Positions 5,183 through 27,381 of a stretch of DNA of 27,905 bases are shown here, piece after piece (within the stretch, counting starts at the first letter, position 1; every line of letters begins with the position of its first letter). The stretch comes from an uncultured Acidimicrobiales bacterium. GTDB taxonomy: Bacteria > Actinomycetota > Acidimicrobiia > Acidimicrobiales > SZUA-35. The notes under the pieces are model-generated. The model did no database searches. It saw only the letters and a list, made by a program, of their open reading frames with translations, and was not told the origin of the DNA. The translations under genes were made by a program, and so were the position numbers. The stretch lies in the NCBI GenBank assembly GCA_938008925.1, contig CALLIQ010000607.1, positions 1-27,905 of the forward strand, read 5' to 3'.

Positions 5183-5871
5183 TGGGGTACCTCGAGGGCT
5201 TTGCCGTCACGTTCAAGAAGTGGGGCGAGGGCGTCACCACGAAGGAATACCGAGCCGGCAAGACCGGTAAGGACGGCACGATCGATGCCCGCGATCAGAA
5301 GGCTCCGAAGCCCGAGCGGGCACACGGTCGCCATGTCCTGAACCGCTACGAAGACGGCATGGAGAAGTGCATCGGCTGCGAGCTGTGCGCGGGTGTCTGC
5401 CCCGCCAAGTGCATCTACGTCCGTGGCGCCGAGAACGAGCCCGACGATCCGAAGTCTCCCGGCGAGCGCTTCGGGTTCGTGTACGAGATCAACTACCTCC
5501 GGTGCATCCACTGCGACCTCTGTGTCGAGGCATGCCCGACCGAGGCCATCACCGAAACGAAGCTCTTCGAGTTCAGCTTCACCAACCGCAGCGACGCGAT
5601 CTACACCAAAAACGAGTTGCTCGTCGACGACGATGGCAAGCCCCAGAATCTTCCATGGGAAGACTGGCGGCCGGGTGAAGACCAGAACACCTCCGGTTGG
5701 ATGCGGGCCACCGCTCCGGCCGGCCGCGCGTCGTTCGAGAACAAGGTCGCGTGGTCTGGCGAGCTCGGTTACGGCGTGCGTGAGCCCGAGAAGGGTCAGG
5801 CCTTCGAGGATCCCGAGCCGATCCCTGAGCCGGCGGCCGACGACCACGATGACCACGGAGGCCACCACTGA
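5182..5871 (+). CDS. nuoI: NADH-quinone oxidoreductase subunit I (copy 1), 2x[4Fe-4S]
   Basis: CIGCELCAGVCP and INYLRCIHCDLCVEACP; TGATG coupling to nuoH. Confidence 0.96.
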   Translation: MGYLEGFAVTFKKWGEGVTTKEYRAGKTGKDGTIDARDQKAPKPERAHGRHVLNRYEDGMEKCIGCELCAGVCPAKCIYVRGAENEPDDPKSPGERFGFVYEINYLRCIHCDLCVEACPTEAITETKLFEFSFTNRSDAIYTKNELLVDDDGKPQNLPWEDWRPGEDQNTSGWMRATAPAGRASFENKVAWSGELGYGVREPEKGQAFEDPEPIPEPAADDHDDHGGHH

Positions 5872-6461: not shown

Positions 6462-6763
6462 TCGTCACCGAGTCCTGGTATCTCATCCTCAGCGCAGCGC
6501 TGTTCTCCATCGGCGCGGTCGGGCTGCTCGTCCGACGCAACCCGCTCGTGATGTTCATGTGTGTCGAGCTCATGCTCAACGCCGTCAACATCAGCTTCGT
6601 GGCCTTCTCGACCGCACTCCAGGATCTCAGCGGTCAGACCGCCGTGTTCTTCGTGCTCGTCGTCGCCGCGGCAGAAGTCGTTGTCGGGCTGTCGATCGTC
6701 GTCGCCGTGTTGCGCCGTCGACCCTCCGCGACAGCTGACGATCTCGCTGAGCTGGGGGGCTGA
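6458..6763 (+). CDS. nuoK: NADH-quinone oxidoreductase subunit K
   Basis: [41 protein letters not shown]; 101 aa, three TM segments. Confidence 0.97.
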
Positions 6764-6768
6764 CCGCA

Positions 6769-9153
6769 ATGCTCGAGGCCACATGGCTGATCCCTGCCCT
6801 TCCACTGCTGGGCTTCTTCCTCCTCGTCATCGGAGGCCGTCGCCTCGGTGAGCCGCTGGCCGGCTGGCTGGCGACGGCGATGATGGGCGGCAGCTTTCTC
6901 GCCACCGTCGCGGTGTTCGCAGGGCTCGTCGCCGAAGAAGAGGCCGATCGCTTCTTCCTCCAGACCATCTTCACCTGGGTCCCATCGGGCACCTTCAGCG
7001 TCGACGTCGGCTTTTTCGCCGATCCGTTGTCGATCACGATGTGCCTGTTCATCACGGGCGTCGGCACGCTGATCCACCTGTACTCGATCGGGTACATGCA
7101 CGGAGACAAGAACTTCTCGAAGTTCTTCCTCTATCTCAACCTCTTCGCCGCATCGATGCTCGTGCTGGTGCTCGGCGACAACTTGTTGATGACCTTCCTC
7201 GGCTGGGAGGGCGTCGGCGCTTGCTCGTACTTCCTGATCAGCTTCTGGTTCGACGAGGAAGCCAACGCCTCGGCCGGCAAGAAGGCCTTCGTCACGAACC
7301 GAATCGGCGACTTCGGCTACATGCTCGGCATGTTCCTGATCTTCAACGCGATCGGGTCGATCCGCTACGCCGACATCATCACCGAGACCCAGGCGGGCAA
7401 CCTCTCCGCCGGCGTCGCCACCGCCGCCGTCCTGCTGTTCATGTTGGCCGCCGCCGGCAAGTCCGCGCAGATCCCGTTGTTCGTGTGGCTGCCAGACGCC
7501 ATGGCGGGCCCGACCCCCGTCTCGGCGCTCATCCACGCCGCGACCATGGTGACCTCGGGCGTCTACCTGCTCACCCGCCTCAACCCGGTGCTCGCCGCTG
7601 CCGATCCGTGGGCCACCGACCTGATCGCCTGGATCGGCGCGATCACCGCGCTCGTGGCTGCGCTCGCCGCTCTGGTCCAGACCGACATCAAGAAGGTCCT
7701 CGCCTACTCCACCGTCTCGCAGCTCGGCTATCTGTTCCTCGCCGTCGGCGTCGGTGGCTACGTGCCGGCGATCTTCCACATGATCACCCACGCCTTCTTC
7801 AAGGCGCTGTTGTTCCTCGGCTCGGGCTCGGTCATCCACGGGCTTCACGACGAGCAAGACATGCGACGGATGGGTGGGCTCACCAAGCTCATGCCCATCA
7901 CCGCGGGCACGTTCATCATCGGCTGGCTCGCCATCGCTGGCGTCCCGCCATTCTCCGGGTTCTGGTCGAAGGACGAGATCCTTCTCTACGCCTACGACGC
8001 CAACCCGATCCTCTGGGCCATCGGTCTCGTCACTGCCCTGCTGACCGCGTTCTACATGACCCGCCAGGTCATCCTCACGTTCTTCGGCCGCATCCGCTTC
8101 TTCGATGCCCACACCGACGAGATCCAGGCCGCGTTCGCCGGCGGCGTCACCGCTGCCGAAGCCGACGTCGAGGCAGCTGAGGCCGACCTCGTCAAGGCGA
8201 ACGAAGCGATCGAGAAGGCCACGGCCGACGTCGCCAAGCGAACCGAGGCGATGACCAAGGCCACCACCGGCCTGTCCGAGGCCACCGACGCGCTCGCCGC
8301 ATCGGACGAGGCGGCCGATGGTCACGCCAAGATCGTGAAGGCCTTCGAGAAGGCCGAAAAGGCCGTGCCGAAGGCCGAGGCCGCGATCGACAAGGCCAAC
8401 GCGGGACTCGCCGAGGCTGAGACCGGTGTCGCCGACGCCGAAGCAGCGCTCGTGGCAGCCCGTGAACGCATTGGCGTCGCCCAGGCCAACGTCGCCAACG
8501 CTCCGAGCGCGCCGACCCACGTCACCGCCCTCACCCCGGCTCCCGACATTGACGAGTTCGCCGACGCCATGCCCGCGTCGTACCGGGAGCGACAGGAGTA
8601 CCACCCGCACGAGTCGCCGTGGACGATGACGCTGCCACTGGTCGCTCTCGCCGGGCTCGCCGCCGTCGGTGGTGGGCTCAACCTGCCGTTCACCAAGGAC
8701 CTGCACTTCCTGGCCCATTGGATCGAGCCGTCGCTGTTCCTCAATGAGGCACACCCGAGCGTCTCCACCAACACCAAGATCGTGTTGGCCATCATCGCTA
8801 TCGCCGTCGGCGTCGTGGCCATCGCTGCAGCGTTCGCTGTCTATCTCCGGGGCAAGGCCGATCCGAAGGCCATCGAGAACCCGGCTCTCGGCGCTGCGGT
8901 TCACTACGACCACGCACTCGCCCGCTTCATGGGCGGTCCCGGCCGGGCGTCGTTCGACGTTGCTGCCTGGTTCGACAAGACCTTCGTCGACGGAGCCGTC
9001 AACGGTGTCGCCACGATGGTCAACGGCGTGGGTACCTCGCTGCGTCGCACACAGACCGGCTTCGCCCGTCAGTACGCCCTCGGCATCACCCTCGGCGTCG
9101 CCGTCGTCGGGCTGTGGCTGCTCCTCAAGTTCTGGATCGAGGTGCCGTCGTGA
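6769..9153 (+). CDS. nuoL: NADH-quinone oxidoreductase subunit L with a large internal coiled-coil insertion
   Basis: YSIGYMHGD, GWEGVGACSYFLISFW, KKAFVTNRIGD, GKSAQIPLFVWLPDAMAGPTPVSALIHAATMV, TDIKKVLAYSTVSQLGY, HAFFKALLFLGSG, HPHESPW. At 794 aa it is longer than the usual ~620-650 aa. Confidence 0.97.
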   Translation: MLEATWLIPALPLLGFFLLVIGGRRLGEPLAGWLATAMMGGSFLATVAVFAGLVAEEEADRFFLQTIFTWVPSGTFSVDVGFFADPLSITMCLFITGVGTLIHLYSIGYMHGDKNFSKFFLYLNLFAASMLVLVLGDNLLMTFLGWEGVGACSYFLISFWFDEEANASAGKKAFVTNRIGDFGYMLGMFLIFNAIGSIRYADIITETQAGNLSAGVATAAVLLFMLAAAGKSAQIPLFVWLPDAMAGPTPVSALIHAATMVTSGVYLLTRLNPVLAAADPWATDLIAWIGAITALVAALAALVQTDIKKVLAYSTVSQLGYLFLAVGVGGYVPAIFHMITHAFFKALLFLGSGSVIHGLHDEQDMRRMGGLTKLMPITAGTFIIGWLAIAGVPPFSGFWSKDEILLYAYDANPILWAIGLVTALLTAFYMTRQVILTFFGRIRFFDAHTDEIQAAFAGGVTAAEADVEAAEADLVKANEAIEKATADVAKRTEAMTKATTGLSEATDALAASDEAADGHAKIVKAFEKAEKAVPKAEAAIDKANAGLAEAETGVADAEAALVAARERIGVAQANVANAPSAPTHVTALTPAPDIDEFADAMPASYRERQEYHPHESPWTMTLPLVALAGLAAVGGGLNLPFTKDLHFLAHWIEPSLFLNEAHPSVSTNTKIVLAIIAIAVGVVAIAAAFAVYLRGKADPKAIENPALGAAVHYDHALARFMGGPGRASFDVAAWFDKTFVDGAVNGVATMVNGVGTSLRRTQTGFARQYALGITLGVAVVGLWLLLKFWIEVPS

Positions 9154-10838
9154 CGTTCGCCGTCGAAGCTGCCGCATCGGCAAACGTGCCGATCTTGCCG
9201 GCGATGATCGCCGTCCCGCTGTTCACCGCTCTGGTGTTGCTGCTGATCCCCAAGAACCGACTCGCCGAGCTGAAGCTCACGGCGCTGGTCGGCTCCTCCA
9301 TCACCGCCGCGTTGTCGGTGTGGATGATGTGGAACTTCGACGCCACCGACGCCGGGCTGCAATTCGTCACCCGCCAGGAGTGGTCTGGCGACCTCGGCCT
9401 CAGCTGGTTCCTCGCCGTCGACGGGATCTCGCTGTTCCTCGTCGTGCTGAGCGGCATCTTGTTCCCGATCGCCATCCTGGCCACCGAACCCCACCACGAT
9501 CACAAGCCGTATTACTTCTGGCTGATGCTCCTGATGACCGGCTCGATGGGCGTCTTCATGGCGCTCGACCTGCTGCTGTTCTTCCTGTTCTTCGAGATCG
9601 TCCTCGTGCCGATGTACTTCCTGATCGGCGGCTGGGGCCACGGTCGACGGATCTACGCCGCGCTGAAGTTCTTCCTCTACACGATGGCCGGTTCGGCGCT
9701 GATGCTCGTCGGCATCGTGTCGGTCGCCTTCTTGTCACGCGACGCCACCGGCGGCCTCACCTTCGACGTGGTGCAGCTGGCAGAGGCCCAGGCGCTCGGC
9801 GACACCGCCGAGGTGCTGGTCTTCTTGAGCTTCGCCCTCGCCTTCGCGGTGAAGGTCCCGCTGTTCCCTCTGCACACCTGGCTGCCAGACGCTCACACCG
9901 AGGCGCCGACGGCCGGCTCGGTGATCCTCGCCGGCGTCATGCTCAAGCTCGGTACGTACGGCTACCTCCGCTTCGGCATCTACCTCTTCCCGAACGCAGC
10001 CCACGACCTCGCCTGGATCTTCCTCACCCTCGGCGTGATCGGCATCGTCTACGGCGCAGCCGTCGCGACCATGCAGCGTGACCTCAAGCGGCTGGTCGCC
10101 TACAGCTCGGTCGCTCACCTCGGCTTCATCGTGCTCGGGCTGTTCGTGCTCAACACGCAGGGCATCCAGGGCGCCATCTTGCAGATGGTCAACCACGGTG
10201 TGTCCACCGGTGCGTTGTTCATCATGGTCGGTTGGATCTACGAACGTCGCCACACCCGTGAGATCGCAGCGCTCGGCGGCCTTCAGAAGTCGGCCCCCGT
10301 CTTCGCCGCCGCCTTCACACTGATCATGCTCTCGAGCATCGGCTTGCCCGGTCTCAACGGCTTCGTCGGCGAGTTCCTGATCCTCATCGGCGGCTTCCAG
10401 GGCGCACGCTGGTGGACCGTCGTCGCCGTCTCGGGCGTCATCCTCGCTGCCCTCTATCTCCTCTGGGCCTACCAGCGGGTGTTCCACGGCCCCGCCGAGG
10501 GCGACAACGCCGACATGCCGGAACTGCGCCTTTCCGAGGGGTTGGCGATCCTGCCGCTGTTGTTCCTCATCGTGTTCATGGGCGTCTATCCCAAGCCTGT
10601 CCTCGAGCGGATGGAGCCCGCGGTCGAGCGTTTGGTCGCCCACATCGAATTCAACGTCGACGGCTTCACCGAGCCGGGCCCAGAGCAGTTCCCGGACGAG
10701 CCAGCCACGGCTGAGGATCTCACCCACACCCTCGAAGAAGCAGAGGCCGCCGAGGAGGATCACTCCGAAGACGATCACTCTGAAGACGGCGACCACTCCG
10801 AGGGCGACGATCACAGCGAAGAAGAGGGAGAGGGCTGA
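9150..10838 (+). CDS. nuoM: NADH-quinone oxidoreductase subunit M
   Basis: FFLFFEIVLVPMYFLIGGWG, AVKVPLFPLHTWLPDAHTEAPTAGS, LKRLVAYSSVAHLG, LPGLNGFVGEFLIL. Start placed at GTG 9150 (GTGA overlap with the nuoL stop, GAGGTG upstream) rather than 9114. Confidence 0.96.
   Translation: MTFAVEAAASANVPILPAMIAVPLFTALVLLLIPKNRLAELKLTALVGSSITAALSVWMMWNFDATDAGLQFVTRQEWSGDLGLSWFLAVDGISLFLVVLSGILFPIAILATEPHHDHKPYYFWLMLLMTGSMGVFMALDLLLFFLFFEIVLVPMYFLIGGWGHGRRIYAALKFFLYTMAGSALMLVGIVSVAFLSRDATGGLTFDVVQLAEAQALGDTAEVLVFLSFALAFAVKVPLFPLHTWLPDAHTEAPTAGSVILAGVMLKLGTYGYLRFGIYLFPNAAHDLAWIFLTLGVIGIVYGAAVATMQRDLKRLVAYSSVAHLGFIVLGLFVLNTQGIQGAILQMVNHGVSTGALFIMVGWIYERRHTREIAALGGLQKSAPVFAAAFTLIMLSSIGLPGLNGFVGEFLILIGGFQGARWWTVVAVSGVILAALYLLWAYQRVFHGPAEGDNADMPELRLSEGLAILPLLFLIVFMGVYPKPVLERMEPAVERLVAHIEFNVDGFTEPGPEQFPDEPATAEDLTHTLEEAEAAEEDHSEDDHSEDGDHSEGDDHSEEEGEG
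10758..10820 (+). repeat. Four imperfect tandem copies of a DHSE(D/G) coding unit in the NuoM C-terminal tail
   Basis: gat cac tcc gaa gac / gat cac tct gaa gac ggc / gac cac tcc gag ggc gac / gat cac agc gaa. Confidence 0.85.
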
Positions 10839-12571
10839 TGATGAGCCTGCTCGCACAGATCGAAGCCCAAGGCGTTCCGCAGCAGTCGGTCGAGTGGTCG
10901 ATGCTGTGGCCGATCATGATCTTGTCGATCGGCGCCGTGCTGTTGGTGACGATCACGTCGCTCGCCCCGTCGACTCGCAACAACGCGTTCCCCGCGATCT
11001 ACACCGCCGTCGCCGGTGTCGCCGCCGCCGCTTTCCTCCCGGGGATGTGGAGCCGGGTCTCGGTGCCGAGCGACGCTGCCGTCGCCAACGCCCAGAATCC
11101 GATCGGCACCGTCTACCAGGCGCTGCTTGGTGATCGCACCGGTCCGATGACCATCGTGAACGACGCCCTGATCGTCGATCACTTCACACTGTTCATCACC
11201 GGCATCATCTGTCTCGCCGTCGTGCTCGTTGCCCTGGTCTTCCACGGCTACCTCGAGCGTGAGGGTTTCGCCGGCCCCGAGTGGTACGTCCTGTTGCTGC
11301 TGTCCGCCAGCGGTGGCGTGATGCTCGCATCGGCCGAAGACCTCATCGTCACCTTCCTCGGCCTCGAGATCTTGTCGATCGCCGTCTACGTGCTGGCCGC
11401 CCTCCACTTGCGTCGGTCCGACTCGCAGGAAGCCGGTTTCAAGTACTTCATCCTCGGCGCTCTCTCGTCCGCTTTCTTCCTCTACGGCATCGCCCTCGTG
11501 TACGGCGCGACGGGTAGCACTCGCATCAGCGACATCGCCGGGTCGCTCTCGACTCCGAACGAAGCAGGCCTCATCCCGAACCAGGACGCCTCGATGCTCC
11601 TCGTCGGCGCTGCGCTGCTGTTGGTCGGCTTCGGCTTCAAGGTGTCGGCCGCCCCGTTCCACGTCTGGACCCCCGACGTCTACGAGGGTTCACCGTCGCC
11701 CGTGGTCGCCTTCATGGCGTCAGCGGTGAAGGTCGCCGGCTTCGCCGGCATGGTCAGGGTCTTCGTCGTCGGTCTCGACGGCATCAGCGGTGACTGGCGG
11801 ATCATGGTGGCCGCCATGGCCGTGCTCACGCTGGTGGTCGGGTCGTTCCTGGCCGTCGTCCAGACCAACGTCAAGCGCATGATGGCCTACTCGTCGATCG
11901 CCCATGCCGGCTTCATGTTGGTTGCGCTCTTCGTGGCCGGCGGTGTTGAACTCGACGACTCCATCGTCGGTGCGCAGGCGCTGCTCTTCTACTTCTTCGC
12001 CTACTCGGTCATGGTGATCGGCACGTTTACGGCGATCACCGTGCTCGGTCGGACCGGAGACGGTCACCACTCGCTTGACGACTACAAGGGTCTCGCACAG
12101 CGTCAGCCGGTGATCGCCGGTTGTCTCGCTGTCCTCGCCTTCGCTCAGGCCGGGATCCCCTTCACGTCCGGCTTCTTCTCGAAGTTCCGAGTGATCGCCG
12201 CTGCGGCTGGCTCCGGTGCGTACGTCTTGGCCGCGGTGGCGATGCTCACCGCTGCTGTCAGCGCCTACCTCTACCTGCGGCTCGTCGTCGCCATCTTCCT
12301 CGACGGCGACGGCCACGACGATGACCACGAAGCCATCGACCTCACCGACGGCGACGCAGCGACTGCGGCCGAGGCTGGCGATGGCGCCGAGGCAGCGGCT
12401 GGAGCGGTTGCCGTCGACGCACCCCCGGTCGCCGTCGATCGCGAGGTCGCCCCGGTGCCCACTGCGGCGCTCGCCGTGCTCGTGGCAACGGTGGTCATCA
12501 CGGTGTTGTTCGGTGTGTTGCCGGGTCTCGGCGGCGACATCCTGCGTCAGGCTGCCGAAGCCCTCAGTTGA
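10838..12571 (+). CDS. nuoN: NADH-quinone oxidoreductase subunit N
   Basis: FLGLEILSIAVYVL, EAGFKYFILGALSS, GFKVSAAPFHVWTPDVYEGSP, NVKRMMAYSSIAHAG, AGIPFTSGFFSKF. Confidence 0.96.
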   Translation: MMSLLAQIEAQGVPQQSVEWSMLWPIMILSIGAVLLVTITSLAPSTRNNAFPAIYTAVAGVAAAAFLPGMWSRVSVPSDAAVANAQNPIGTVYQALLGDRTGPMTIVNDALIVDHFTLFITGIICLAVVLVALVFHGYLEREGFAGPEWYVLLLLSASGGVMLASAEDLIVTFLGLEILSIAVYVLAALHLRRSDSQEAGFKYFILGALSSAFFLYGIALVYGATGSTRISDIAGSLSTPNEAGLIPNQDASMLLVGAALLLVGFGFKVSAAPFHVWTPDVYEGSPSPVVAFMASAVKVAGFAGMVRVFVVGLDGISGDWRIMVAAMAVLTLVVGSFLAVVQTNVKRMMAYSSIAHAGFMLVALFVAGGVELDDSIVGAQALLFYFFAYSVMVIGTFTAITVLGRTGDGHHSLDDYKGLAQRQPVIAGCLAVLAFAQAGIPFTSGFFSKFRVIAAAAGSGAYVLAAVAMLTAAVSAYLYLRLVVAIFLDGDGHDDDHEAIDLTDGDAATAAEAGDGAEAAAGAVAVDAPPVAVDREVAPVPTAALAVLVATVVITVLFGVLPGLGGDILRQAAEALS

Positions 12572-13121: not shown

Positions 13122-13781
13122 TCAAGCGTTCGATGGAGTGTCCGGTACGCCCGTTGACTCGAGCGTGAAGAACGGGATGAACACCTGCGCCAGCGGCCCG
13201 ATCGCGGCGGCGAAGACGATCGTGCCGATGCCAAATGTCCCGCCAAGGGCGATGCCAGCCACGAGGACGACGATTTCGATCCCCGTTCGAACGAGACGGA
13301 TGGACCAGCCGCGCTTGGCGAGCCCTGTCATCAGCCCGTCGCGGGGACCGGGCCCGAGTCCGGCACCCACGTACATGCCCGTCGCGGCGCCGTTCAACAC
13401 CACGCCGACGATGAGGGCGCCGATCCGCACCGGCCAACCCGTGAGCTCCGGCAACACGGCGAGCGATGCGTCGAGTGCGAGCCCGACCACGACGGCGTTC
13501 GAGATCGTGCCGATTCCGAGCCGTTCTCGCAGCGGGATCCAGCCGAGGAGCACCACGGCGCTCGTCATGATGACGACCGCACCGATCGACACACCGATCA
13601 GGCCGCTCACCCCTTGGTGAAAGACGTCCCACGGTGCGTTGCCGAGCTCCGCGGCCACGATGAGGGCGAGGCTGAATCCAAAGACGGCGAGGCCCACGTA
13701 GAGCAGAACGAGACGAGCCAGCGGCCGATCGTCGAGTTGGAGCGCTGTTCGGATCGAGTGGAACGCGGGGCGCTCAGCCAC
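13122..13781 (-). CDS. YczE/YitT-like integral membrane protein
   Basis: LGNAPWDVFHQGVS, ERLGIGTISN, YVGAGLGPGPRDGLMTGL, VRTGIEIVV, GGTFGIGT. Start placed at GTG 13781, overlapping the dusB stop; the start is uncertain. Confidence 0.85.
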   Translation of the reverse strand: MAERPAFHSIRTALQLDDRPLARLVLLYVGLAVFGFSLALIVAAELGNAPWDVFHQGVSGLIGVSIGAVVIMTSAVVLLGWIPLRERLGIGTISNAVVVGLALDASLAVLPELTGWPVRIGALIVGVVLNGAATGMYVGAGLGPGPRDGLMTGLAKRGWSIRLVRTGIEIVVLVAGIALGGTFGIGTIVFAAAIGPLAQVFIPFFTLESTGVPDTPSNA

Positions 13782-14892
13782 CCGAGACGGCCGAATCACC
13801 CTCGGGGTTCGCCATCGCATCGTCGTCGGGGTCGCCGAGCCAGTTCTCGGGGAGCGCCACCACTTGCGGGCCCCGTGTGTGGCCCCGGGCAACCCGGCGA
13901 TTCTCCGGCGGCAACGGCGCGTCGGGGATCATCGACAGCAGGGTCTCGAGCTCGTCGAGGCTTTCGATCCGGCCGAGCTTGCCCCGCATCTCGCCGCCCA
14001 CCGGATAACCCTTGAGATACCAGGCGGTGTGCTTGCGGAACTCGCGGATCCCCTTGCGGTCGCCGAACCAGTCGAGCAGCGCGGTGGCGTGCTCCACCAT
14101 GATCGGCTTCACCTCGTCCGTCGACAGCGCGGGCGGCACGGGTTCACCCGCCATCGCGGCAGCCAGCTCACCGAAGAGCCAGGGCCGTCCGAGACAGCCG
14201 CGCCCGATGACGACGCCGTCGCAACCGGTCTGACGCATCATCTCGATGGCATCGGCGGCCTCCCAGATGTCGCCGTTGCCGAGAACGGGGATCTCGGCGG
14301 GAACGGCCTCGCGGAGCTTGGCGATGGTCGACCAATCGGCGTGGCCGGAGTAGAGCTGGGCGACGGTTCGTCCGTGTAGGGCGATGGCGGCTGCGCCGGA
14401 ATCGGCGGCGATGCGGCCGGCGTCGAGGTAGGTCAGGTGGTGATCATCGATGCCGACCCGCATCTTCACGGTGACGGGCACCCCGGCCGGCCGAGCGGCT
14501 TCCACCGCCGACCGCACGATCGCTTCGAAGAGTTTCCGCTTGTAGGGAAGGGCGCCCCCGCCGCCGTTGCGCGTGACCTTGCGGACCGGGCAGCCGAAGT
14601 TGATGTCGATGTGGTCGACCCGTTCTTCACCGACCAGGCGCTCGACGGCGAGTCCCATGTAGTGAGGATCGACACCGGCGAGCTGCAGCGATCGAGGTGA
14701 TTCGTCCGGAGCGAAACTGGCCAGCTTCTGAGTCTTGTCGTTGCCCTCGACCAGGGCGCGGGCCGACACCATCTCGTTGACGTAGAGCCCGCCGCCGAAG
14801 CGGCGGCACAGGGTACGGAACGGCGCGTTGGTGACGCCCGCCATGGGGGCGAGCACCACGGGGGTGGCGACGTCGATCGGACCGATCTTCAT
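13774..14892 (-). CDS. dusB: tRNA dihydrouridine synthase
   Basis: C-terminal 372 aa of track ORF 13774..16335: VVLAPMAGVTN, IDINFGCPVRKV (catalytic Cys), PVTVKMRVG, ALHGRT, GNGDIW, VVIGRGCLGRPWLF. Confidence 0.93.
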   Translation of the reverse strand: MKIGPIDVATPVVLAPMAGVTNAPFRTLCRRFGGGLYVNEMVSARALVEGNDKTQKLASFAPDESPRSLQLAGVDPHYMGLAVERLVGEERVDHIDINFGCPVRKVTRNGGGGALPYKRKLFEAIVRSAVEAARPAGVPVTVKMRVGIDDHHLTYLDAGRIAADSGAAAIALHGRTVAQLYSGHADWSTIAKLREAVPAEIPVLGNGDIWEAADAIEMMRQTGCDGVVIGRGCLGRPWLFGELAAAMAGEPVPPALSTDEVKPIMVEHATALLDWFGDRKGIREFRKHTAWYLKGYPVGGEMRGKLGRIESLDELETLLSMIPDAPLPPENRRVARGHTRGPQVVALPENWLGDPDDDAMANPEGDSAVSGG

Positions 14893-14898
14893 CCACAC

Positions 14899-14904
14899 AG
14901 TCTG
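14899..14904 (-). promoter_or_regulatory. Possible -10 element (CAGACT) for a leaderless dusB mRNA
   Basis: Hexamer ends 6 nt before ATG 14892, the same spacing as the TAnnnT boxes elsewhere in the window, but with a non-consensus first base. Confidence 0.35.
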
Positions 14905-14934
14905 CCGCGTCAGCCGCTGAGCAGCGACGAGCAC

Positions 14935-14940
14935 TACCGT
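14935..14940 (+). promoter_or_regulatory. Putative -10 element (TACCGT), leaderless LLM gene
   Basis: TAnnnT 6 nt before ATG 14947; no Shine-Dalgarno. Confidence 0.6.
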
Positions 14941-14946
14941 TGGCTC

Positions 14947-15819
14947 ATGTCCGCTTCGATCGGTGCCATGGTCCTCCGCACCGTCGCCCCCGAGCACGAG
15001 GTCGCGCATGCGGTCGCCCTCGCTCCTCTGGTCGACGAGTTGTGGATCGTCGAAGACCTTCCGTTCGCGGGAGGAATCAGCCAGTGCGCCGCGATTCTCG
15101 AGGCGACGAGCGGTCTTGATGATCCGCCGCTGATCGGCCACGGCATCGCGCCCGCTCCCTTCCGCAATCCGGTCGCGCTCGCGATGGAGTGGGCGGCACT
15201 GGCGCGGATGTACCCCGGGCGCATCCACGGCGGGATCGGCCACGGCGTGCCGTCGTGGATGAGTCAGATCGCAAAGACGAAGGCCTCGCCGCTCACGCTG
15301 CTCGACGAGACGATCACCGCCGTTCGGACCTTGCTGCGCGGCGAGACGCTTGACGCGGACGGCCGTTACGTGAACGTGAGCGACGTGACCCTCGAGTTCG
15401 CTCCGCGCGACGTACCGCTCGTCTCGGCCGGTGTGACCGGACCCCGATCGCTGGAGGTCGCCGGTGAGCGGGCCGACGGGACGATCCTCCCGGAGGGGCA
15501 GGGTCCCGAAGAGGTGGAGCGAGCTCGTGGGCACATCGACGATGGTCGGAACCGGGCCACACCGCCGCCGAACGACGTGCATCGGCTCACCGTCTTCACC
15601 GGCTACTTCTGTGGTGACCTGTCGACGCTGCCGCCCCCACCGGCGCACCTGCCACCCGGTTGGGACGCCGTCGGGGCCAGCCCCGATCAGGTCGCGGCTC
15701 GGTTGCAGTCGCTGATCAACGCAGGCGTCGACTCGATCGTGCTCGTTCCCTTCGGTGACGACGCGGTCGGTCAGATCGAGCTGGCGGCGAACGACATCGT
15801 CCCCCAACTCGTCCGCTGA
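14947..15819 (+). CDS. LLM-class (luciferase-like) flavin-dependent oxidoreductase
   Basis: DELWIVEDLPFAGG, GIAPAPFRNPVALAMEWAALARMYPGRIHGGIGHG, GPRSLEVAGERADGTIL. FMN versus F420 dependence cannot be resolved by eye. Confidence 0.88.
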   Translation: MSASIGAMVLRTVAPEHEVAHAVALAPLVDELWIVEDLPFAGGISQCAAILEATSGLDDPPLIGHGIAPAPFRNPVALAMEWAALARMYPGRIHGGIGHGVPSWMSQIAKTKASPLTLLDETITAVRTLLRGETLDADGRYVNVSDVTLEFAPRDVPLVSAGVTGPRSLEVAGERADGTILPEGQGPEEVERARGHIDDGRNRATPPPNDVHRLTVFTGYFCGDLSTLPPPPAHLPPGWDAVGASPDQVAARLQSLINAGVDSIVLVPFGDDAVGQIELAANDIVPQLVR

Positions 15820-15849
15820 ACGGCGAATCTGCTGAACGGCGTATCGACG

Positions 15850-16944
15850 GTGCTGTGCCGAGCGGCGGTCGCGCTCGCCGTTCTCTTCGCCGCGTCGGCG
15901 TGCGGTGTCGTGTCGGCCGACTCGGCCTCCGAACCCACTACGCCGATGATCACGGTCACGACGCTCACCTTCGACGACCCTGCGATCGCCGACTCCTCGT
16001 CCGGTTCGACCAGCGCGGCTGTCAACAGCACCGATTCCGCAGCCGACGATCAGGTGGCGACCCTCGACGACGTGGTTGCGTTCGCCGACTTGGCGAACCT
16101 CGAGACGGTGATCGCGCTCGACGCACGCGTCGTCCACGTCGCCTACACCGAGAGGGGTGTCGATGGCATGCCGGAGCGCCGAGGGCACAGCCACGAGGTC
16201 GCCCCGCTCGGGTGGGCGTGGTCCGACGGTGACTACGTGTTCCAGTGGGTCGACGACGGCGACGGCGCCTTGCGTTCGACGGCCGCGACCTTCGACGGGA
16301 CGATCATCTGCGAGGCGGACGGATCGATCCACCACTTCGACCCGCCAGAAGACGAGGCGGGACGCTCAGGCGTCATGGCCGTCGAGGCGTCGCCGAGCGA
16401 GTGGCAGCTCCCGACCTCCGACGATGCCGAATTCGCCATTCCATTGACGGACGTCGACTGTGAGACGGGCGGCGCCGAACCCGGTGAGTCGGTGTCGTTC
16501 CGCAGCGCCGACGGGTTCCGCTTCACGAAGTACGCAGGCCCGAGGACGTTCCGGGGCGTACGCGACACCAACGGCATCGCCACGTTGTTCGACGACCTCG
16601 ATCGACCGGTCAACGGCGACGACCCGGCGATCGATCACAAGTTCAACATCAACGCGACGATTGTGGCCTACGGCGTGTTGGCCTCACCGGACGACCCGTC
16701 GATCGTGACCGACGTGATTCGAGTTCGAGTGGTCGACACCGGAGAGATCCTCTGGACGGTGAAGCTCCCGTTCCCATTCACGTTCTTCCACTTCGCCGAC
16801 GATCGGCTCGTGGTCGGCCAACCGGACCGCGGTGGCTCGCAGGGGGGACAGTCGACCGCGTCGGTCTTGCTGTTCGACGTGCGCGACGGTTCGCAGCTCG
16901 GTCACTTCGCCGCGCCGTTCGAGGTGTTGTCCGTCGGCGGCTGA
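15850..16944 (+). CDS. Hypothetical lipoprotein
   Basis: Signal peptide with lipobox-like FAASAC, Ser/Thr/Asp-rich linker, beta-rich acidic body; no family recognised. Confidence 0.7.
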   Translation: MLCRAAVALAVLFAASACGVVSADSASEPTTPMITVTTLTFDDPAIADSSSGSTSAAVNSTDSAADDQVATLDDVVAFADLANLETVIALDARVVHVAYTERGVDGMPERRGHSHEVAPLGWAWSDGDYVFQWVDDGDGALRSTAATFDGTIICEADGSIHHFDPPEDEAGRSGVMAVEASPSEWQLPTSDDAEFAIPLTDVDCETGGAEPGESVSFRSADGFRFTKYAGPRTFRGVRDTNGIATLFDDLDRPVNGDDPAIDHKFNINATIVAYGVLASPDDPSIVTDVIRVRVVDTGEILWTVKLPFPFTFFHFADDRLVVGQPDRGGSQGGQSTASVLLFDVRDGSQLGHFAAPFEVLSVGG

Positions 16945-16954
16945 CCTCGGCCGG

Positions 16955-17863
16955 TCAGTCAGTGATCGCCGGCTCGTGCTCGAGCATTCCGAGCGCATCG
17001 ATGTGGGCGAGGAGCCGATCTCCCTCGGGCCGGTTGCCGATCGTGGCGTTGTAGACCAGGTGCCCGGCGGCGATGTGGACCGCGCAGGCCTCGAGGCGAA
17101 CGGGATCCGCTCGATGACCCCAACGCCGTTCGAGCTCGCGGCGCAGCAGCGAGACGTCGAGCGCTGGGAACCACGGTGCCCACAGCTCGAACCAGGCGAG
17201 GTCATAGAGGTGGTCGCCCCAGAGCCGGCAGCCCCAGTCGAAAACGCCCGTGATCGTCGACCCGACGGTGTGGACGTTCCGGTTGACGAGGTCGCGATGC
17301 AACAAGGTGGGTCGCACGCCCGCCACCTCGGGCTGCTCGCACAACTCGGCGAGCCGTTCGACGAGAACGGCGTGGGCCCGCGCGGCGTCAGGCAGGGCGT
17401 CGAGGTGCTCCCGCCATCCGTCGAGACGGCCGTCGTCGTCATGGCGATCGAACAGAACCTCCGGCCACGACGGGGCCGGCGCCGCCACGGGTGGCTCGAT
17501 CTCGCGCATCGCTTCGAGCATGTCGGCGACTCGGGGAACGAGCGCCGCCCACTCGCTCGGTTCGGCACGCTCGAGCGGCCGACCCGGCGCGTACGTCGAA
17601 ACGCACACCCACAGGTCCTCGTGCGGCGGGTCGAGACGGTCCACCTCGAGCACGTTCGGGATCGGGAGTGCAGCCGACGCGTGCGCGGCCATTTCGGCAT
17701 CGATCTCGAAGTCTTCGTGGTGAGGGCCGACGCGAACGACGAGTGATTCACCGCGCCGAGAGAACCGGAACGCCGTCGACCACGCTCCCGCCCCGATCGG
17801 CACCAACGCACCGAACCGCCTCGTCAACGCTTCGATCACCTGGGGTGACACCGTCGCTCGCAC
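16955..17863 (-). CDS. Aminoglycoside phosphotransferase/choline kinase (APH) family protein, substrate unknown
   Basis: C-terminal 302 aa of track ORF 16955..19567: IGAGAWSTAF (Gly loop), VVRV, LLHRDLVNRNV (Brenner motif), GVFDWG, GDHLYDLA. Confidence 0.85.
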   Translation of the reverse strand: MRATVSPQVIEALTRRFGALVPIGAGAWSTAFRFSRRGESLVVRVGPHHEDFEIDAEMAAHASAALPIPNVLEVDRLDPPHEDLWVCVSTYAPGRPLERAEPSEWAALVPRVADMLEAMREIEPPVAAPAPSWPEVLFDRHDDDGRLDGWREHLDALPDAARAHAVLVERLAELCEQPEVAGVRPTLLHRDLVNRNVHTVGSTITGVFDWGCRLWGDHLYDLAWFELWAPWFPALDVSLLRRELERRWGHRADPVRLEACAVHIAAGHLVYNATIGNRPEGDRLLAHIDALGMLEHEPAITD

Positions 17864-17869
17864 CCTCGG

Positions 17870-17875
17870 ATCGTA
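17870..17875 (-). promoter_or_regulatory. Putative -10 element (TACGAT), leaderless APH-family gene
   Basis: TAnnnT 6 nt before GTG 17863 on the minus strand. Confidence 0.6.
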
Positions 17876-17938
17876 GGTCCAACGACCCAATTCCGGCCTG
17901 GAGAAAACCGCCGGCCGCCCGTCGTGCGACAGATGAAC

Positions 17939-18343
17939 ATGCTTCGCACCGTCGCCGTCTCTCTCCTGGGTTTGTCTCTGCTCACCGCCTGTGAACGCAC
18001 GGAGGTGAACGGCATCGGTTCCTACACCGGCGACCCGGCGCAGCCTCCGCAGCTCGACGTGGTCGGTTCCGACCGCTGCGCGGCCGGCGAGTGGGGTTTC
18101 GCGTTGGCCGACGCGACGATCCGCAACAACACCGCCGACGTCGCGACCTACGAGGTCGTCATCGCGTTCGAGTCCGATGCGGTGCGGCTCGGTCAGGGGA
18201 GCGCGTGGGTGCGCAGCCTCGATCCGGGCCAGACGAGTGAGCTCACCGTGACCCGTCACCTCGGCGAGGCGGCGGCCGAGCTCACGACGTGTCGCGTCAT
18301 CACCGTGAATCGATGGGAGGCCGACACGACATCTCCGGGTTGA
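17939..18343 (+). CDS. Small lipoprotein with an FxLYD-like Ig-fold domain
   Basis: Lipobox LLTAC; IRNNTADVATYEVVIAF...LDPGQTSEL resembles the FxLYD domain pattern; two further Cys could form a disulfide. Start may be 17933 or 17939. Confidence 0.65.
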   Translation: MLRTVAVSLLGLSLLTACERTEVNGIGSYTGDPAQPPQLDVVGSDRCAAGEWGFALADATIRNNTADVATYEVVIAFESDAVRLGQGSAWVRSLDPGQTSELTVTRHLGEAAAELTTCRVITVNRWEADTTSPG

Positions 18344-18415
18344 GCGCGGCGCAACACGGGCCGACCGAAACGGCTCGTGGAGACCAGCGGCCGCCGGCGT
18401 GTTTGACTGGCGGGG

Positions 18416-19249
18416 ATGATCGACGCCGACTGCCGAGTGCTGAGCTGGAACCTCTGGTGGCGGTTCGGCGGCTGGGAGGCCAGGCAGCCGCTGATCGATC
18501 ACGCCATCGCCGAGGCGCAAGCCGACATCATCGGTCTCCAGGAGGTGTGGCGCACCGTCGCGGAGAGCCAGTTCGATCGACTCGCCGATGCTGCAGGACT
18601 CGCAAACGTGGCCTGGAGCCCCAATCGCCAGCCCGAGCGGTGGCGCTCTCGTCTCGTCGACGGGCCGAACGATCTCGACTGCGGATTGGCGATCATCAGC
18701 CGATGGCCGATCACCGAAACCGCCGAGATCGAGCTTCCGAACGGTGATCGGCCGCCGAGTGGACGAACGGCGCTCGCCGCGGTCATCGAACACCCTCGTG
18801 GACCGCTTCTGTTCGTCACGACGCACCTCGAGCCGCACCCCGCTCGGTCCGCCGTGCGAGTCGATCAGCTCAACGCCGTGGCATCGATGGTGCACGAGCT
18901 GTCGATGCGGTCTGGCTCGGAGCCGTTGCCCTCGATCGTGTGCGGAGATCTGAACGCAGAACCTCACTCCGACGAGGTCCGTCGCTTCAGCGGCTTGCAG
19001 ACCGCCCCGCACGTTGACGACCTCGCCTTCCAAGACGCTTGGCACGTGGCCGGGCCAGAGAACGACCCCGGTTGGACCTGGCGCAAGGAGTGTCCCCACA
19101 TCGCAGCGGGCAATCCGAGCGCCCGAATCGACTACGTGTTCTGCGACCTCCGCAGCCGCATTGCCGGCGTCGATCTCGTCGGCATCGGTCCCTCGACGAT
19201 GTGGCCCTCCGATCACGCGGGCGTGGTCGCCGATGTTCGGCCTGGCTGA
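18416..19249 (+). CDS. Endonuclease/exonuclease/phosphatase (EEP) family protein
   Basis: VLSWNL, IIGLQEV, TTHL, VCGDLNA, RIDYVF, SDHAGV. Confidence 0.92.
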   Translation: MIDADCRVLSWNLWWRFGGWEARQPLIDHAIAEAQADIIGLQEVWRTVAESQFDRLADAAGLANVAWSPNRQPERWRSRLVDGPNDLDCGLAIISRWPITETAEIELPNGDRPPSGRTALAAVIEHPRGPLLFVTTHLEPHPARSAVRVDQLNAVASMVHELSMRSGSEPLPSIVCGDLNAEPHSDEVRRFSGLQTAPHVDDLAFQDAWHVAGPENDPGWTWRKECPHIAAGNPSARIDYVFCDLRSRIAGVDLVGIGPSTMWPSDHAGVVADVRPG

Positions 19250-19276
19250 CGCGCCCCGACCCTGACCGCACGTCGT

Positions 19277-19282
19277 TAGCGT
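19277..19282 (+). promoter_or_regulatory. Putative -10 element (TAGCGT), leaderless VOC gene
   Basis: TAnnnT 6 nt before ATG 19289; no Shine-Dalgarno. Confidence 0.6.
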
Positions 19283-19288
19283 TTCTTC

Positions 19289-19642
19289 ATGGGTCTCGAT
19301 TGGGAACAGGTCGTCGTCGCTGCGAGCGACCCGGTTGCGCTCGGGCGCTGGTGGTGCGACGCACTCGACTGGGTCGTCGTCGACCACGGGCCGGTCGTCT
19401 TCGAGATTCAGCCGGAGGTCGATCGCACACCGGGGATCATGTTCCTCCCCGTCGAGCAGGCCAAGACGGCGCAGAATCGGCTCCACATCGATCTCCGACC
19501 GGATGATCAAGACGGCGAAGTCGAGCGGTTGATCGGGCTCGGGGCGACCCGGGTCGACGTCGGCCAAGGCGACGCGTCGTGGGTCGTGCTCGCCGATCCG
19601 GAGGGCAACGAGTTCTGCGTCCTGTCGGGTCGGGCGCTCTGA
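19289..19642 (+). CDS. VOC (glyoxalase-like) family protein
   Basis: DPVALGRWWCDALDW, NRLHIDL, VLADPEGNEFCV. Confidence 0.92.
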   Translation: MGLDWEQVVVAASDPVALGRWWCDALDWVVVDHGPVVFEIQPEVDRTPGIMFLPVEQAKTAQNRLHIDLRPDDQDGEVERLIGLGATRVDVGQGDASWVVLADPEGNEFCVLSGRAL

Positions 19643-23793: not shown

Positions 23794-24303
23794 ATGGGTC
23801 TGGTTGAATCAGGGAAGCTCCCCAAGCCCCTGACCACCTTGTTGAACACCAGTCGCAAGTACTCGCTGTGGGTGTACCAGTGGGGCCTCGCCTGCTGCGC
23901 GATCGAGATGGGCGCGGCCTTCGGGTCGCCTCGCTATGACGTGATGCGTCTCGGCGTGATCCCGCTTCCCGCGAGCCCCCGCCAGGCCGACCTCGTCTGC
24001 GTTTCCGGCACGGTCACCGACAAGATGGCCCCGGCCATTCGCCGCCTCTACGAGCAGATGCCCGAGCCCAAGTACGTGATCTCGATGGGTTCGTGCGCGA
24101 ACTGCGGCGGCCCGTACTGGGACAGCTACTCGGTCACCAAGGGCATCGATCAGATCATCCCGGTCGATGTTTACGTGCCCGGATGTCCCCCTCGGCCCGA
24201 GGCGCTGCTCGAAGGCATCGTGCTGCTGCAGGAGATCATCCAGAACGAAGACATGGCCGAGAAGTGGAACACCGACCCGCTCGCCGTGGGAGTGATCGAC
24301 TGA
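23794..24303 (+). CDS. nuoB: NADH-quinone oxidoreductase subunit B (cluster 2)
   Basis: [50 protein letters not shown]. Confidence 0.97.
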
Positions 24304-25091
24304 TGACCGACACCACCGAGGAACCCCAGACCGAAGAGGTCGTCGACGAGGCCAGGGTGGCTCTGCTCGAGGCCATGAGCGCAGAGCTCGGCGATGCGCT
24401 GGTCGATTCCCACCTCATTCCCGGCAAGGACCTCATCATCCGAGTCACCTCGGAATCGTGGGGTGACACGGCTGCGTATCTGCGTGAACGCCAGCGTTTC
24501 CGGTACTTCAACTTCTTGTCGGCGATCGACTGGCTGCCGTCGCCCTTCGGCCGCTCGATGGACTCCGAGGTCGACAAGATCGTCGGCGCCGTCGATGGCG
24601 CCGAGGACGAAGCCGGCGAGGAAGAAGAAGCCGGAACCGGCTACGCCGGCGGCGACACCCGCTTCCAGATGCTGGCTCGGGTCAACAGCCTCACCACGCT
24701 GCTGGGCGTCACCGTCAAGGCCGACGTCCCAGACGACGACCTCACCGTCGCCACCTGGACCGGCGTCTACCCCGGTGCCGATTGGCACGAACGGGAGATG
24801 TACGAGATGTACGGGATCTCTTTTGCCGGCCATCCCGGCCTGCGGAACCTCTACCTGCCTGGCGACTTCGAGGGCCACCCGCTCCGCAAGGACTTCCCGC
24901 TCCTCGCCCGCATCGTGAAGCCCTGGCCCGGCATCGTCGACGTCGAACCCATGCCGCCGCTCCCTTCGGTCGCTAACGACCTTTCGCCTGACGGCGAAAC
25001 GCCCGCCGTTGAAGGTGGTCCCTCAACGACGAATCCCGAGGATGGCGGCAGTTCCGAAGGAACTGTGATGAACCCGGAGGGTTCACGATGA
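24303..25091 (+). CDS. nuoC: NADH-quinone oxidoreductase subunit C (cluster 2)
   Basis: FNFLSAIDW, GADWHEREMYEMYGISFAGHPGLRNLYLP, GHPLRKDFPL. Start at ATG 24303 (TGATG coupling to nuoB). Confidence 0.95.
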   Translation: MTDTTEEPQTEEVVDEARVALLEAMSAELGDALVDSHLIPGKDLIIRVTSESWGDTAAYLRERQRFRYFNFLSAIDWLPSPFGRSMDSEVDKIVGAVDGAEDEAGEEEEAGTGYAGGDTRFQMLARVNSLTTLLGVTVKADVPDDDLTVATWTGVYPGADWHEREMYEMYGISFAGHPGLRNLYLPGDFEGHPLRKDFPLLARIVKPWPGIVDVEPMPPLPSVANDLSPDGETPAVEGGPSTTNPEDGGSSEGTVMNPEGSR

Positions 25092-26260
25092 CTGCTGTTT
25101 CTGATCGTCGCCAGCTCGCCTACATCGCGGCCCAGGCCGCCGATGCTCGAGTCAACATCGAGCTCGAGGCCGAGGGCATGACCCTCAACATCGGCCCGCA
25201 GCACCCGGCCACCCACGGCACGCTTCGCATCGTGGCCCGCCTCGATGGCGAGCAGGTGATCGAAGCCGATCCGATCATGGGCTACATGCACCGCGGCTAC
25301 GAGAAGCTCGCCGAGGTGCGGACCTATCCGCAGGTCACGACGCTCATCAACCGCATCGACTGGCTCGGCAGCTTCGCAAACGAGGTGCCGTTCATCCTCG
25401 CTGCCGAGCAGCTGATGGACATCGAGGCACCGCCTCGGGCCCAGCACATCCGCACGATCCTGTTCGAGCTCGCTCGCATTGCGAACGTCACGCTGTTCCT
25501 CGGCGACATGGGCGTGCAGCTCGGCGCGGTCACGCCCGTCTTCTACGCCTTCCGCGATCGTGAGCACGTGCTCAACCAGATCGAGGCCGCCACCGGTGGT
25601 CGGTTCCACCCGAACTTCGACCGCATCGGCGGCCTGAAGGACGATCTGCCGGCAGGTTGGATCGAGGAGACCAAGCGGTCCCTCAAGGAGATCCGCAAGT
25701 TCTGCGATCAGATGGACGACTTGATCGTCGGCAACGAGATCTTCCAGGCCCGTACCCGCGGCATCGGCGTGATTCCTGCCGACGTCGCCCTGAGCTACGG
25801 CCTGTCCGGCGCCAACGTGCGCTCGAGCGGTGTCGACTGGGACCTCCGTCGAGACAACCCGGTCGGCCTCGCCTACGACAAGGTCGACTGGAAGGTCTGG
25901 ACCCACCCAGACGGCGACTCGTTCGCTCGCTATTGGGTCCGTCTCCAAGAGGTGCGCGAGAGCTGCAACATCGTCGAGCAGCTCCTCGACACGATTCCCA
26001 GCGGCCCGATCATGGCCAAGGTGCCCCGCATCATCAAGGTGCCCGAGGGTGAGGCCTACGTCGAGACCGAGAACCCGCTGGGCGTGATGGGCTACTACGT
26101 CGTGTCGAAGGGCGGGCTCAACCCGTTCCGGGTCAAGATCCGTTCCGCCAGCTTCTCGAACATGTCGATCAGCCCGTGGCTGCTCAAGGGCTCCTACGTG
26201 CCCGACGTGATCACGATCTTGGCCAGCCTGTACTTCATCCTCGGAGACATCGACCGTTAA
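25088..26260 (+). CDS. nuoD: NADH-quinone oxidoreductase subunit D (cluster 2)
   Basis: LNIGPQHPATHGTLR, GYMHRGYEK, GEAYVETENPLG, FILGDIDR; no NiFe CxxC motifs. Confidence 0.96.
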   Translation: MTAVSDRRQLAYIAAQAADARVNIELEAEGMTLNIGPQHPATHGTLRIVARLDGEQVIEADPIMGYMHRGYEKLAEVRTYPQVTTLINRIDWLGSFANEVPFILAAEQLMDIEAPPRAQHIRTILFELARIANVTLFLGDMGVQLGAVTPVFYAFRDREHVLNQIEAATGGRFHPNFDRIGGLKDDLPAGWIEETKRSLKEIRKFCDQMDDLIVGNEIFQARTRGIGVIPADVALSYGLSGANVRSSGVDWDLRRDNPVGLAYDKVDWKVWTHPDGDSFARYWVRLQEVRESCNIVEQLLDTIPSGPIMAKVPRIIKVPEGEAYVETENPLGVMGYYVVSKGGLNPFRVKIRSASFSNMSISPWLLKGSYVPDVITILASLYFILGDIDR

Positions 26261-27334: not shown

Positions 27335-27381
27335 TGATGTTCGGCCACACTGTTCGCCGCATGCGCGTGGGAGAAGTCTGA
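27334..27381 (+). CDS. Possible 15-aa bridging mini-ORF ([15 protein letters not shown]) between nuoH2 and nuoI2
   Basis: Its ATG overlaps the nuoH2 stop (TGATG) and its own TGA overlaps the nuoI2 ATG (TGATG). Confidence 0.3.

Follow-up and report, generated by a model that had tools for sequence, protein, structure and literature searches.

A conserved coiled-coil hairpin predicted in the TM13-TM14 loop of the complex I subunit NuoL in a family of uncultured Acidimicrobiales

The nuoL gene and its insert

The window considered here (the whole analysed stretch of DNA, 27,905 nucleotides) derives from contig CALLIQ010000607.1 of assembly GCA_938008925.1, which is assigned to an uncultured Acidimicrobiales bacterium (SZUA-35), and carries genes of respiratory complex I in the order nuoF-G-H-I-J-K-L-M-N. 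The nuoL gene is located between nuoK and nuoM, as a single uninterrupted frame of 794 amino acids (aa) on the plus strand (6769..9153). Its product contains a large insert in the cytoplasmic loop between transmembrane (TM) helices 13 and 14, flagged at aa 445-611 (8101..8601, plus strand) by translation and alignments, and this insert is the subject of the present work.

The product of 6769-9153 is unambiguously NuoL. The frame scores 661.9 bits against NF005141, which is above the cut-off of 556, and 646.5 bits against TIGR01974 (cut-off 407.5). Both profiles match in two stretches with the insert as the split point, and indeed every profile or structure match to the nuoL product falls into two halves. 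The Pfam domains PF00361, PF00662 and PF01010 are all present. Comparison of an AlphaFold2 (AF2) model with NuoL of Mycobacterium smegmatis (8e9g_L, 629 aa) yields a VIA Z of 49.7, with 584 residues aligned within model residues 1-762. The C-terminal arrangement of TM15, a long lateral helix and TM16, which is the hallmark of NuoL versus NuoM and NuoN, is found in the model as well. Residues E147, K231, H256, H337, H341, K345, K401 and D402 are invariant in a 41-sequence alignment (A1), and we take these charged residues to match the proton-path residues of the Escherichia coli protein (TM5, TM7, TM8, TM11, TM12). An 849-aa antisense frame (6634-9183, minus strand) covers all of nuoL; this is the usual artefact of a genome with 65% G+C and not a gene.

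Residues 5-444 of the protein align to residues 8-449 of M. smegmatis NuoL, and residues 611-788 to 453-628. Thus about 166 residues (aa 445-610, window 8101-8598) replace a loop of 3 residues. The insert consists of 30% Ala, 11% Glu, 8% Asp and 6% Lys, contains no Cys, and has a net charge of -17. An earlier note on this DNA, made from the sequence, had described an Ala/Glu/Lys-rich text at 8101-8601, which the translation matches exactly, and about 167 codons between the flanking motifs, which is a fair count given 171 from G440 (the end of FFG) to H612 (HPHE). The last helix before the insert is TM13 (aa 413-438, 8005..8082, plus strand, according to DSSP assignment of the AF2 model), and the insert begins only 10 residues past it. 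The model and the alignments place TM14 (aa 618-637), TM15 (667-693), the lateral helix HL (709-761) and TM16 (768-790) downstream of the insert (8620..9138, plus strand).

Predicted fold of the insert

Structure prediction with AF2 was performed on the whole NuoL protein using alignment A1, and on the insert alone using 19 sequences, in both cases as single chains. The mean predicted local distance difference test score (pLDDT) of the whole protein is 84.5, with blocks of about 90 over the insert (445-610). Folded in isolation, the insert reaches a pLDDT of 94 and a predicted template modelling score (pTM) of 0.71, and displays the same elements, with helices at insert residues 5-67 and 75-132. 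It is therefore not predicted to be disordered (pLDDT about 90 or higher), which the earlier note had named as a finding that would speak against a structured stalk.

All of the following elements lie on the plus strand. Helix 1 of the predicted hairpin spans 63 residues (aa 449-511, 8113..8301), with heptad positions 'a' at 460, 467 and so on up to 509, and Ala at 'd'. It is followed by an acidic turn of 7 residues (aa 512-518, 8302..8322) with the consensus S-S-E/P-x-D-D-G, and by helix 2 with 58 residues (aa 519-576, 8323..8496), with 'a' at 519, 526 and so on up to 575, and again Ala at 'd'. An invariant proline, Pro534, sits inside helix 2. The return segment (aa 577-611, 8497..8601) is conserved and comprises an extended piece of 18 residues with the motif VTA-x-T-x-AP-D, followed by two short helices (595-600 and 603-610) with P-x-SY-x-x-R-Q-EY; its pLDDT is 87-91 even if the insert is folded without the membrane part. 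At 1.5 A per residue, a straight hairpin of 63 + 58 residues would be about 9 nm long. This is in line with the antiparallel stalk of several nanometres that the earlier note had envisaged, as is its picture of two heptad-like helices around a short turn.

The heptad pattern was assessed by the distribution of large hydrophobic residues over the seven possible registers in the sequence of the window itself. In helix 1, 8 of the 9 large hydrophobic residues occupy all 8 'a' sites of one register (p = 8e-8, corrected for 7 registers). In helix 2, 8 of 12 are found on 'a', by which 8 of the 9 'a' sites are filled (p = 1.5e-5). The 'a' positions are large aliphatic residues, and the 'd' positions, three residues after 'a', read A-A-A-A-R-A-A in helix 1 and I-A-A-A-A-A-A-A in helix 2. 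Core positions of the two helices pair with amino acid numbers that sum to 1028, around the turn at 512-518; the rough mirror symmetry noticed earlier is thus real, in the sense of a hairpin. Fourier analysis of Kyte-Doolittle hydropathy displays no significant periodicity in a single-sequence test. For the family mean, helix 2 is significant (1 of 1000 shuffles) and helix 1 is not (173 of 1000). This weak signal is explained by the presence of Ala everywhere in the insert; we consider the register test of large hydrophobic residues the valid one, Kyte-Doolittle periodicity being weak for single sequences.

Modelling hence predicts a stably folded antiparallel two-helix coiled coil whose core, with large hydrophobic residues at 'a' and Ala at 'd', is Alacoil-like. 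Alacoils are marked by helices packed unusually closely, about 7.5-8.5 A apart. That the two helices run antiparallel and are packed together is a prediction only. It is backed by concerted changes in arm length among relatives: in genus g9 both helices contribute to a shortening of the insert by 32 aa, and in family f52 it is about 25 aa longer.

Side of the membrane

According to the AF2 secondary structure, 13 TM helices precede the insert, the numbering being anchored by two broken helices, TM7 (214-244) and TM12 (376-411). A first count had placed the insert in the TM14-TM15 loop, and thus in the periplasm, which is ruled out by the 13 preceding helices of the model. Two TM helices (TM14 and TM15) separate the insert from the lateral helix, and hence both are on the same side. 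According to PMC11794437, the lateral helix is located on the cytoplasmic or stromal side, and a hydrophilic segment of cyanobacterial NdhF1 lies between TM13 and TM14. PMC11522691 assigns both the TMH2-3 beta-hairpin and the TMH14-15 loop to the periplasm. Both publications agree with the helix numbering used here. In addition, Arg442 and Arg444 and an Arg-rich stretch just before TM14 flank the insert, which fits the positive-inside rule. In the model, the insert is therefore exposed to the cytoplasm and, as part of the distal subunit, sits at the far end of the membrane arm of complex I, and the cytoplasmic orientation proposed in the earlier note is supported by both the helix count and the flanking Arg and Lys residues.

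Distribution, phylogeny and selection

Three samples were used to trace the insert: 41 related genomes, 88 genomes of the same family, and 401 genomes sampled evenly across the order. Among the 41 related genomes, 13 of the 14 genera of the family have an insert-bearing NuoL of 786-799 aa, while genus g7 (small genomes, 1.2-3.2 Mb) has a NuoL of 645 aa with a loop of 3-6 residues and lacks the insert; all 16 other families sampled have a NuoL of 623-671 aa. Using the insert alone as query, 74 of the 88 family genomes match, from 12 genera, with a single copy each and a span of almost always 165-172 residues. In the order-wide sample, matches are restricted to this family plus two weak ones in families f24 and f52; both of these are genuine NuoL proteins whose insert occupies the same position but has diverged. 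The f24 insert has the same length, with Gln and Ala instead of the lysines described below; the f52 insert, the longer one, keeps part of the lysine pattern. All named records are metagenome-assembled genomes of uncultured Acidimicrobiales.

A maximum likelihood tree of the NuoL core, calculated with the insert columns removed, unites all insert-bearers in one clade (Shimodaira-Hasegawa-like approximate likelihood ratio test, SH-aLRT, 98), and genus g7 and family f17 nest within this clade. The fewest changes on this unrooted, quick tree are three. Most simply, the insert was gained once and lost twice, in g7 and in f17, where the lack of the insert is probably due to loss. As g7 and probably the sister family f17 do without the insert, it is dispensable for the enzyme.

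Across 18 genus representatives, the insert measures 165-168 aa without indels. Mean pairwise identity is 80% for the NuoL core, 45% for the insert, and 56% for the C-terminal TM14-TM16 part. Because most pairs are saturated in dS, only the closest pair gives a trustworthy ratio of non-synonymous to synonymous substitution rates (dN/dS): 0.03 in the core and 0.10 in both the insert and TM14-TM16. The insert is real, not an artefact, and under purifying selection. Two further doubts raised in the earlier note, that the insert might be unique to this assembly or hypervariable without heptads, are thereby dispelled: it is carried by most genomes of the family, and both heptads and length are conserved among relatives.

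Conservation along the hairpin

In the 18 genus representatives, entropy per position follows the heptad. It is lowest at 'd' (about 0.5), followed by 'g' (1.1-1.4) and 'a' (1.5-1.7), and amounts to about 2 or more at 'b', 'e' and 'f'. Position 'a' remains aliphatic and 'g' mostly small. Along its length, the insert is divided into three parts. The foot, composed of aa 445-459 (with D446, E451 and A455) and aa 577-611 (with the motifs V-T-A and P-x-S-Y-x-x-R), is conserved. In the stalk (about 460-482 and 546-576) only the core is kept, and the surface is variable. The tip, aa 483-545 (8215..8403, plus strand), is a conserved module in the alignment of these 18 sequences.

In helix 1 of the tip, K483, D487 and K490 are invariant in 18 of 18 sequences, while position 491 has Arg in 16 and Lys in the other 2. 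In helix 2 of the tip, K521, K524, K528, K531, P534 and K535 are invariant as well, and K542 is kept in 16 of 18. Eleven exposed or near-exposed residues of the tip, including the helix-internal proline, are thus invariant or nearly so. These residues occupy heptad positions 'c' and 'f', and the neighbouring 'g' is mostly Ala. Helix 2 of the tip, with an average charge of +2.2, is the sole net-positive segment in the 18 sequences, all others being negative. From heptad geometry, 'g' and 'c' of both helices should lie on one face, so that two rows of lysines would frame a band of small residues at the tip.

Origin of the insert

A repeat search revealed a tandem repeat of 42 bp within helix 1 (8181..8264, plus strand; 14 aa, or two heptads), in 2 copies with 81% matching, which may be a trace of insert growth or an effect of codon or composition bias. 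In direct order, helix 2 is also similar to helix 1 (47% over 36 aa). A phmmer search with the insert against 1.84 billion representatives found no homologue outside NuoL. Of its 13 matches, three are NuoL fragments; the ten others were considered as donors of the insert and rejected, being unrelated repetitive or coiled-coil proteins (for instance DUF11/HYR, HlyD, ankyrin and alanine-zipper). Searches of the insert against Pfam and NCBIfam returned sub-threshold coiled-coil noise only, the ESM Atlas search gave nothing above 0.83, and in a Protein Data Bank search with the whole protein no chain, be it NuoL, ND5 or NdhF, aligned over residues 445-610 (584 of 794 residues at best).

In sister families that lack the hairpin, the same NuoL loop often carries 10-45 aa of unrelated His/Ala/Glu/Gly-rich sequence at loci L022, L023, L026, L028 and L029 (genomes G040, G039, G034, G038 and G028, respectively). 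The TM13-TM14 loop is an insertion hot spot in Acidimicrobiales. Judging from the sequence, the insert likely grew through heptad duplication in a permissive loop.

Comparison with known systems

The closest parallel is found in chloroplasts. The stromal 'loop-1' of Arabidopsis NdhF protrudes from the membrane and docks PnsB2/PnsB3 (10.1101/2021.12.16.472899). In alignments, the chloroplast NdhF 9grx_F has about 75 extra residues at exactly the TM13-TM14 site, with an N-terminal part up to 463 and a C-terminal part from 538, which suggests that loop-1 is the same TM13-TM14 loop. Like chloroplast NdhF loop-1 (7wff_F, 7eu3_F, 9grx_F), the insert is located in a NuoL homologue, on the lateral-helix side, in the distal membrane arm. 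However, there is no detectable sequence similarity between the two; loop-1 is an 'L-shaped coiled structure' rather than a long two-helix coiled coil, it has about half the length of the insert, and its partners are plant-specific.

Bacteria, too, provide cases in which the distal antiporter-like subunit has accessory sequence in the loops of its C-terminal part. The TMH14-15 loop of Paracoccus denitrificans ND5 carries a periplasmic, flexible insertion with 44 disordered residues (PMC11522691), and Synechocystis NdhF1 has a segment of about 58 aa (aa 452-509) in the TM13-TM14 loop (PMC11794437). The latter shares the loop with the insert described here but is not known as a coiled coil, and neither of the two insertions is a long, rigid and conserved hairpin.

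On the level of structure, the best Foldseek matches to the insert model are the hairpins of colicins E3 and E9 (1jch, 2b5u, 7nsu, 1ujw), which are weak (E = 1.4e-3 to 1.6e-2), with 21-27% identity over 118-138 columns and template modelling (TM) scores of 0.3-0.4. The colicin receptor-binding domain resembles the insert in being a two-helix antiparallel hairpin, about 10 nm long, in which every seventh core position is Ala; it binds BtuB through its tip, according to the titles of entries 1ujw and 2ysu. On the other hand, colicin hairpins belong to extracellular toxins, whereas the insert is a loop of a membrane enzyme. The weak matches, with an identity that reflects composition, give no evidence of common descent. 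Further look-alikes in Foldseek, EnvC and RipA (all weak, E >= 1.4e-3), are likewise hairpins with a partner-binding tip or side.

Chemoreceptors (methyl-accepting chemotaxis proteins, MCPs) are membrane-anchored proteins with a cytoplasmic antiparallel coiled coil that combines a conserved tip with a variable stalk and changes its length in both arms. The insert is similar in its conserved tip, its variable stalk and its paired length changes, whereas MCP hairpins, which are about three times as long, form four-helix bundles by dimerisation. The NuoL insert has no MCP match in Pfam or NCBIfam.

A full-text literature search found no description of a coiled-coil NuoL insertion or of an insert in NuoL of Acidimicrobiia. 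The statement of the earlier note that no complex I with such a feature has been described agrees with this search, but has to be limited by the precedent in chloroplast NdhF, with its insertion of about 75 aa in the same loop. The insert is a lineage-specific elaboration of the distal complex I subunit; its length, its rigidity and the conservation of both length and tip set it apart.

Neighbouring features

Three other complex I subunits encoded in the window carry additions of low complexity, acidic and rich in His: NuoM has a C-terminal tail of Glu/Asp/His/Ser repeats (aa 511-574, 10644-10835), NuoN an insertion before the last TM helix (aa ~490-545, 12305-12472), and NuoI a C-terminal tail ending in D-D-H-D-D-H-G-G-H-H (5770-5868). 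These additions are possible binding sites for metal or protons.

A second complex I-type operon begins in the window (24093-27887), with genes of the 30-kDa/NuoC-like (24093-25091), 49-kDa/NuoD-like (25088-26260), NuoH-like (26261-27334) and 2x[4Fe-4S] NuoI-like type (27312 to the contig end). In a genome of the same genus (L071), this operon goes on with NuoL-, NuoM- and NuoN-like genes, and its NuoL displays no break at the loop and no large insert. A second NuoL, about 50% identical, is found in nearly all of the 41 related genomes, often 13-20 kb from the first. A link between the insert and the second operon was considered and dismissed: g7, which is without the insert, also has the second operon, and hence there is no correlation.

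Two long frames on the minus strand match Pfam in their C-terminal parts only. The 853-aa frame (13774-16335) has Dus (495-799) as its only match, and the 870-aa frame (16955-19567) an APH-type kinase (589-816). Their true starts are probably much further downstream than listed.

Possible functions of the insert

Based on this dataset, we tentatively hypothesize that the insert is a docking arm for an acidic partner protein, a reading to which we give somewhat less than even chances. The arm would consist of the conserved foot, the stalk with its variable surface, and the conserved third at the tip. An exposed ladder of lysines at 'c' and 'f' (K483, K490, K521, K524, K528, K531, K535 and K542) would present two basic rails, and the groove of small residues between them would suit a partner's acidic helix or tail. 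The stalk, being acidic (about -17 for the domain), would hold the arm off the anionic membrane, with the tip some nanometres into the cytoplasm. A docking arm is favoured by the conservation, which is concentrated at the tip and not along one whole face, by the acidic remainder of the domain, which should stay clear of the membrane, and by the precedent of chloroplast NdhF loop-1 carrying PnsB2/PnsB3. More specifically, the hairpin may be the anchor of an accessory module, its tip holding, at the distal membrane arm, either a soluble protein or a portion of another respiratory complex that lies in the cytoplasm, a proposal that we regard as rather doubtful.

Several observations weigh against a docking arm. 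The nuoF-N stretch contains no extra gene for a partner. The acidic NuoN insertion, which lies in the paralogous loop, was considered in this role and discarded, as it varies within the genus (frames of 595, 584 and 521 aa) and does not co-occur with the insert. NuoM has 14 TM helices with both ends outside; its acidic His-rich C-terminal tail should therefore be periplasmic, on the wrong side, and was dropped as a candidate as well. The picture of groove and rails is derived from heptad geometry and not from the model, and in family f24 the ladder is made of Gln and Ala. The groups without insert, g7 and f17, are nested among insert-bearers. Moreover, part of the role of Lys at 'c' and 'f' could be to form salt bridges within a helix with Glu or Asp at 'b' and 'e'.

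Other explanations must account for the same features. The hairpin might be folded down onto NuoL and NuoM on their cytoplasmic face, in much the same direction as the lateral helix, and serve as an internal brace that stiffens the membrane arm, its lysine face meeting acidic loops of neighbouring antiporter-like subunits or lipid head groups, comparable to mitochondrial supernumerary subunits. The firm mounting of the insert, 10 residues after TM13 and on a conserved foot of 35 residues, would fit such a brace, as would a length of about 9 nm, which is close to the estimated width of two antiporter-like subunits, and the failure to find a separate partner gene. Also, the lateral helix of the same subunit is already a clamp (PMC11794437). 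We nevertheless consider a brace unlikely: apart from one segment the domain is strongly acidic, which is unfavourable beside an anionic membrane, the stalk surface varies (entropy of about 2 or more at 'b', 'e' and 'f') although packing along the length should conserve one whole face, and AF2 folds the foot confidently without the membrane part. The hairpins of two complexes I, or of complex I and another hairpin protein, might alternatively associate into antiparallel four-helix bundles and thereby form dimers or rows. In the tip half, small or hydrophobic residues fill 'a', 'd' and 'g' and broaden the apolar stripe beyond the need of two helices, chemoreceptor hairpins share the conserved tip and the paired heptad indels, and a designed sequence with an Ala-containing a/d/g core forms an antiparallel tetramer with one Alacoil interface (10.1101/503698). 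Invariant lysines, however, line that very face on both helices, and pairing like on like would be electrostatically unfavourable unless offset, so that self-association appears quite improbable.

It may finally be asked whether the insert has a specific role at all, or is a tolerated expansion of a permissive loop that grew by heptad duplication and was kept mainly since partial deletions misfold. Several findings are consistent with this: the traces of internal duplication, the lack of a homologue outside NuoL, the unrelated His/Ala/Glu inserts of 10-45 aa in the same loop of several sister families, a loop about 16-75 aa longer in cyanobacterial and chloroplast NdhF, and the clean loss in g7 and probably f17 along with the shortening in g9. 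Yet length is fixed in 74 genomes of 12 genera, dN/dS of the insert is about 0.1, and core packing alone is insufficient to explain eleven exposed or near-exposed residues that are invariant or nearly so. We therefore assign a low probability to an expansion without a specific role, and retain the docking arm as our working hypothesis.

Significance

Bacterial complex I is usually treated as a bare core of 14 subunits, and accessory structures have mostly been described in mitochondria, chloroplasts and a few alphaproteobacteria. The data presented here describe a whole lineage with a predicted rigid arm of about 9 nm and a charged, conserved tip, located in a core subunit at the place where the chloroplast NDH complex attaches accessory subunits. 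If nothing binds to the tip, the insert would be a clean natural case of a long Alacoil hairpin that has grown in a loop of a membrane protein, apparently by heptad duplication. If the tip does bind, this would show that accessory modules or supercomplex contacts begin as loop insertions of core subunits, and the isolated soluble domain of 167 aa would be a handle for finding the partner. Should the hairpin indeed anchor an accessory module, this module would be this actinobacterial lineage's own supernumerary subunit or supercomplex contact, evolved independently of those in mitochondria and chloroplasts.

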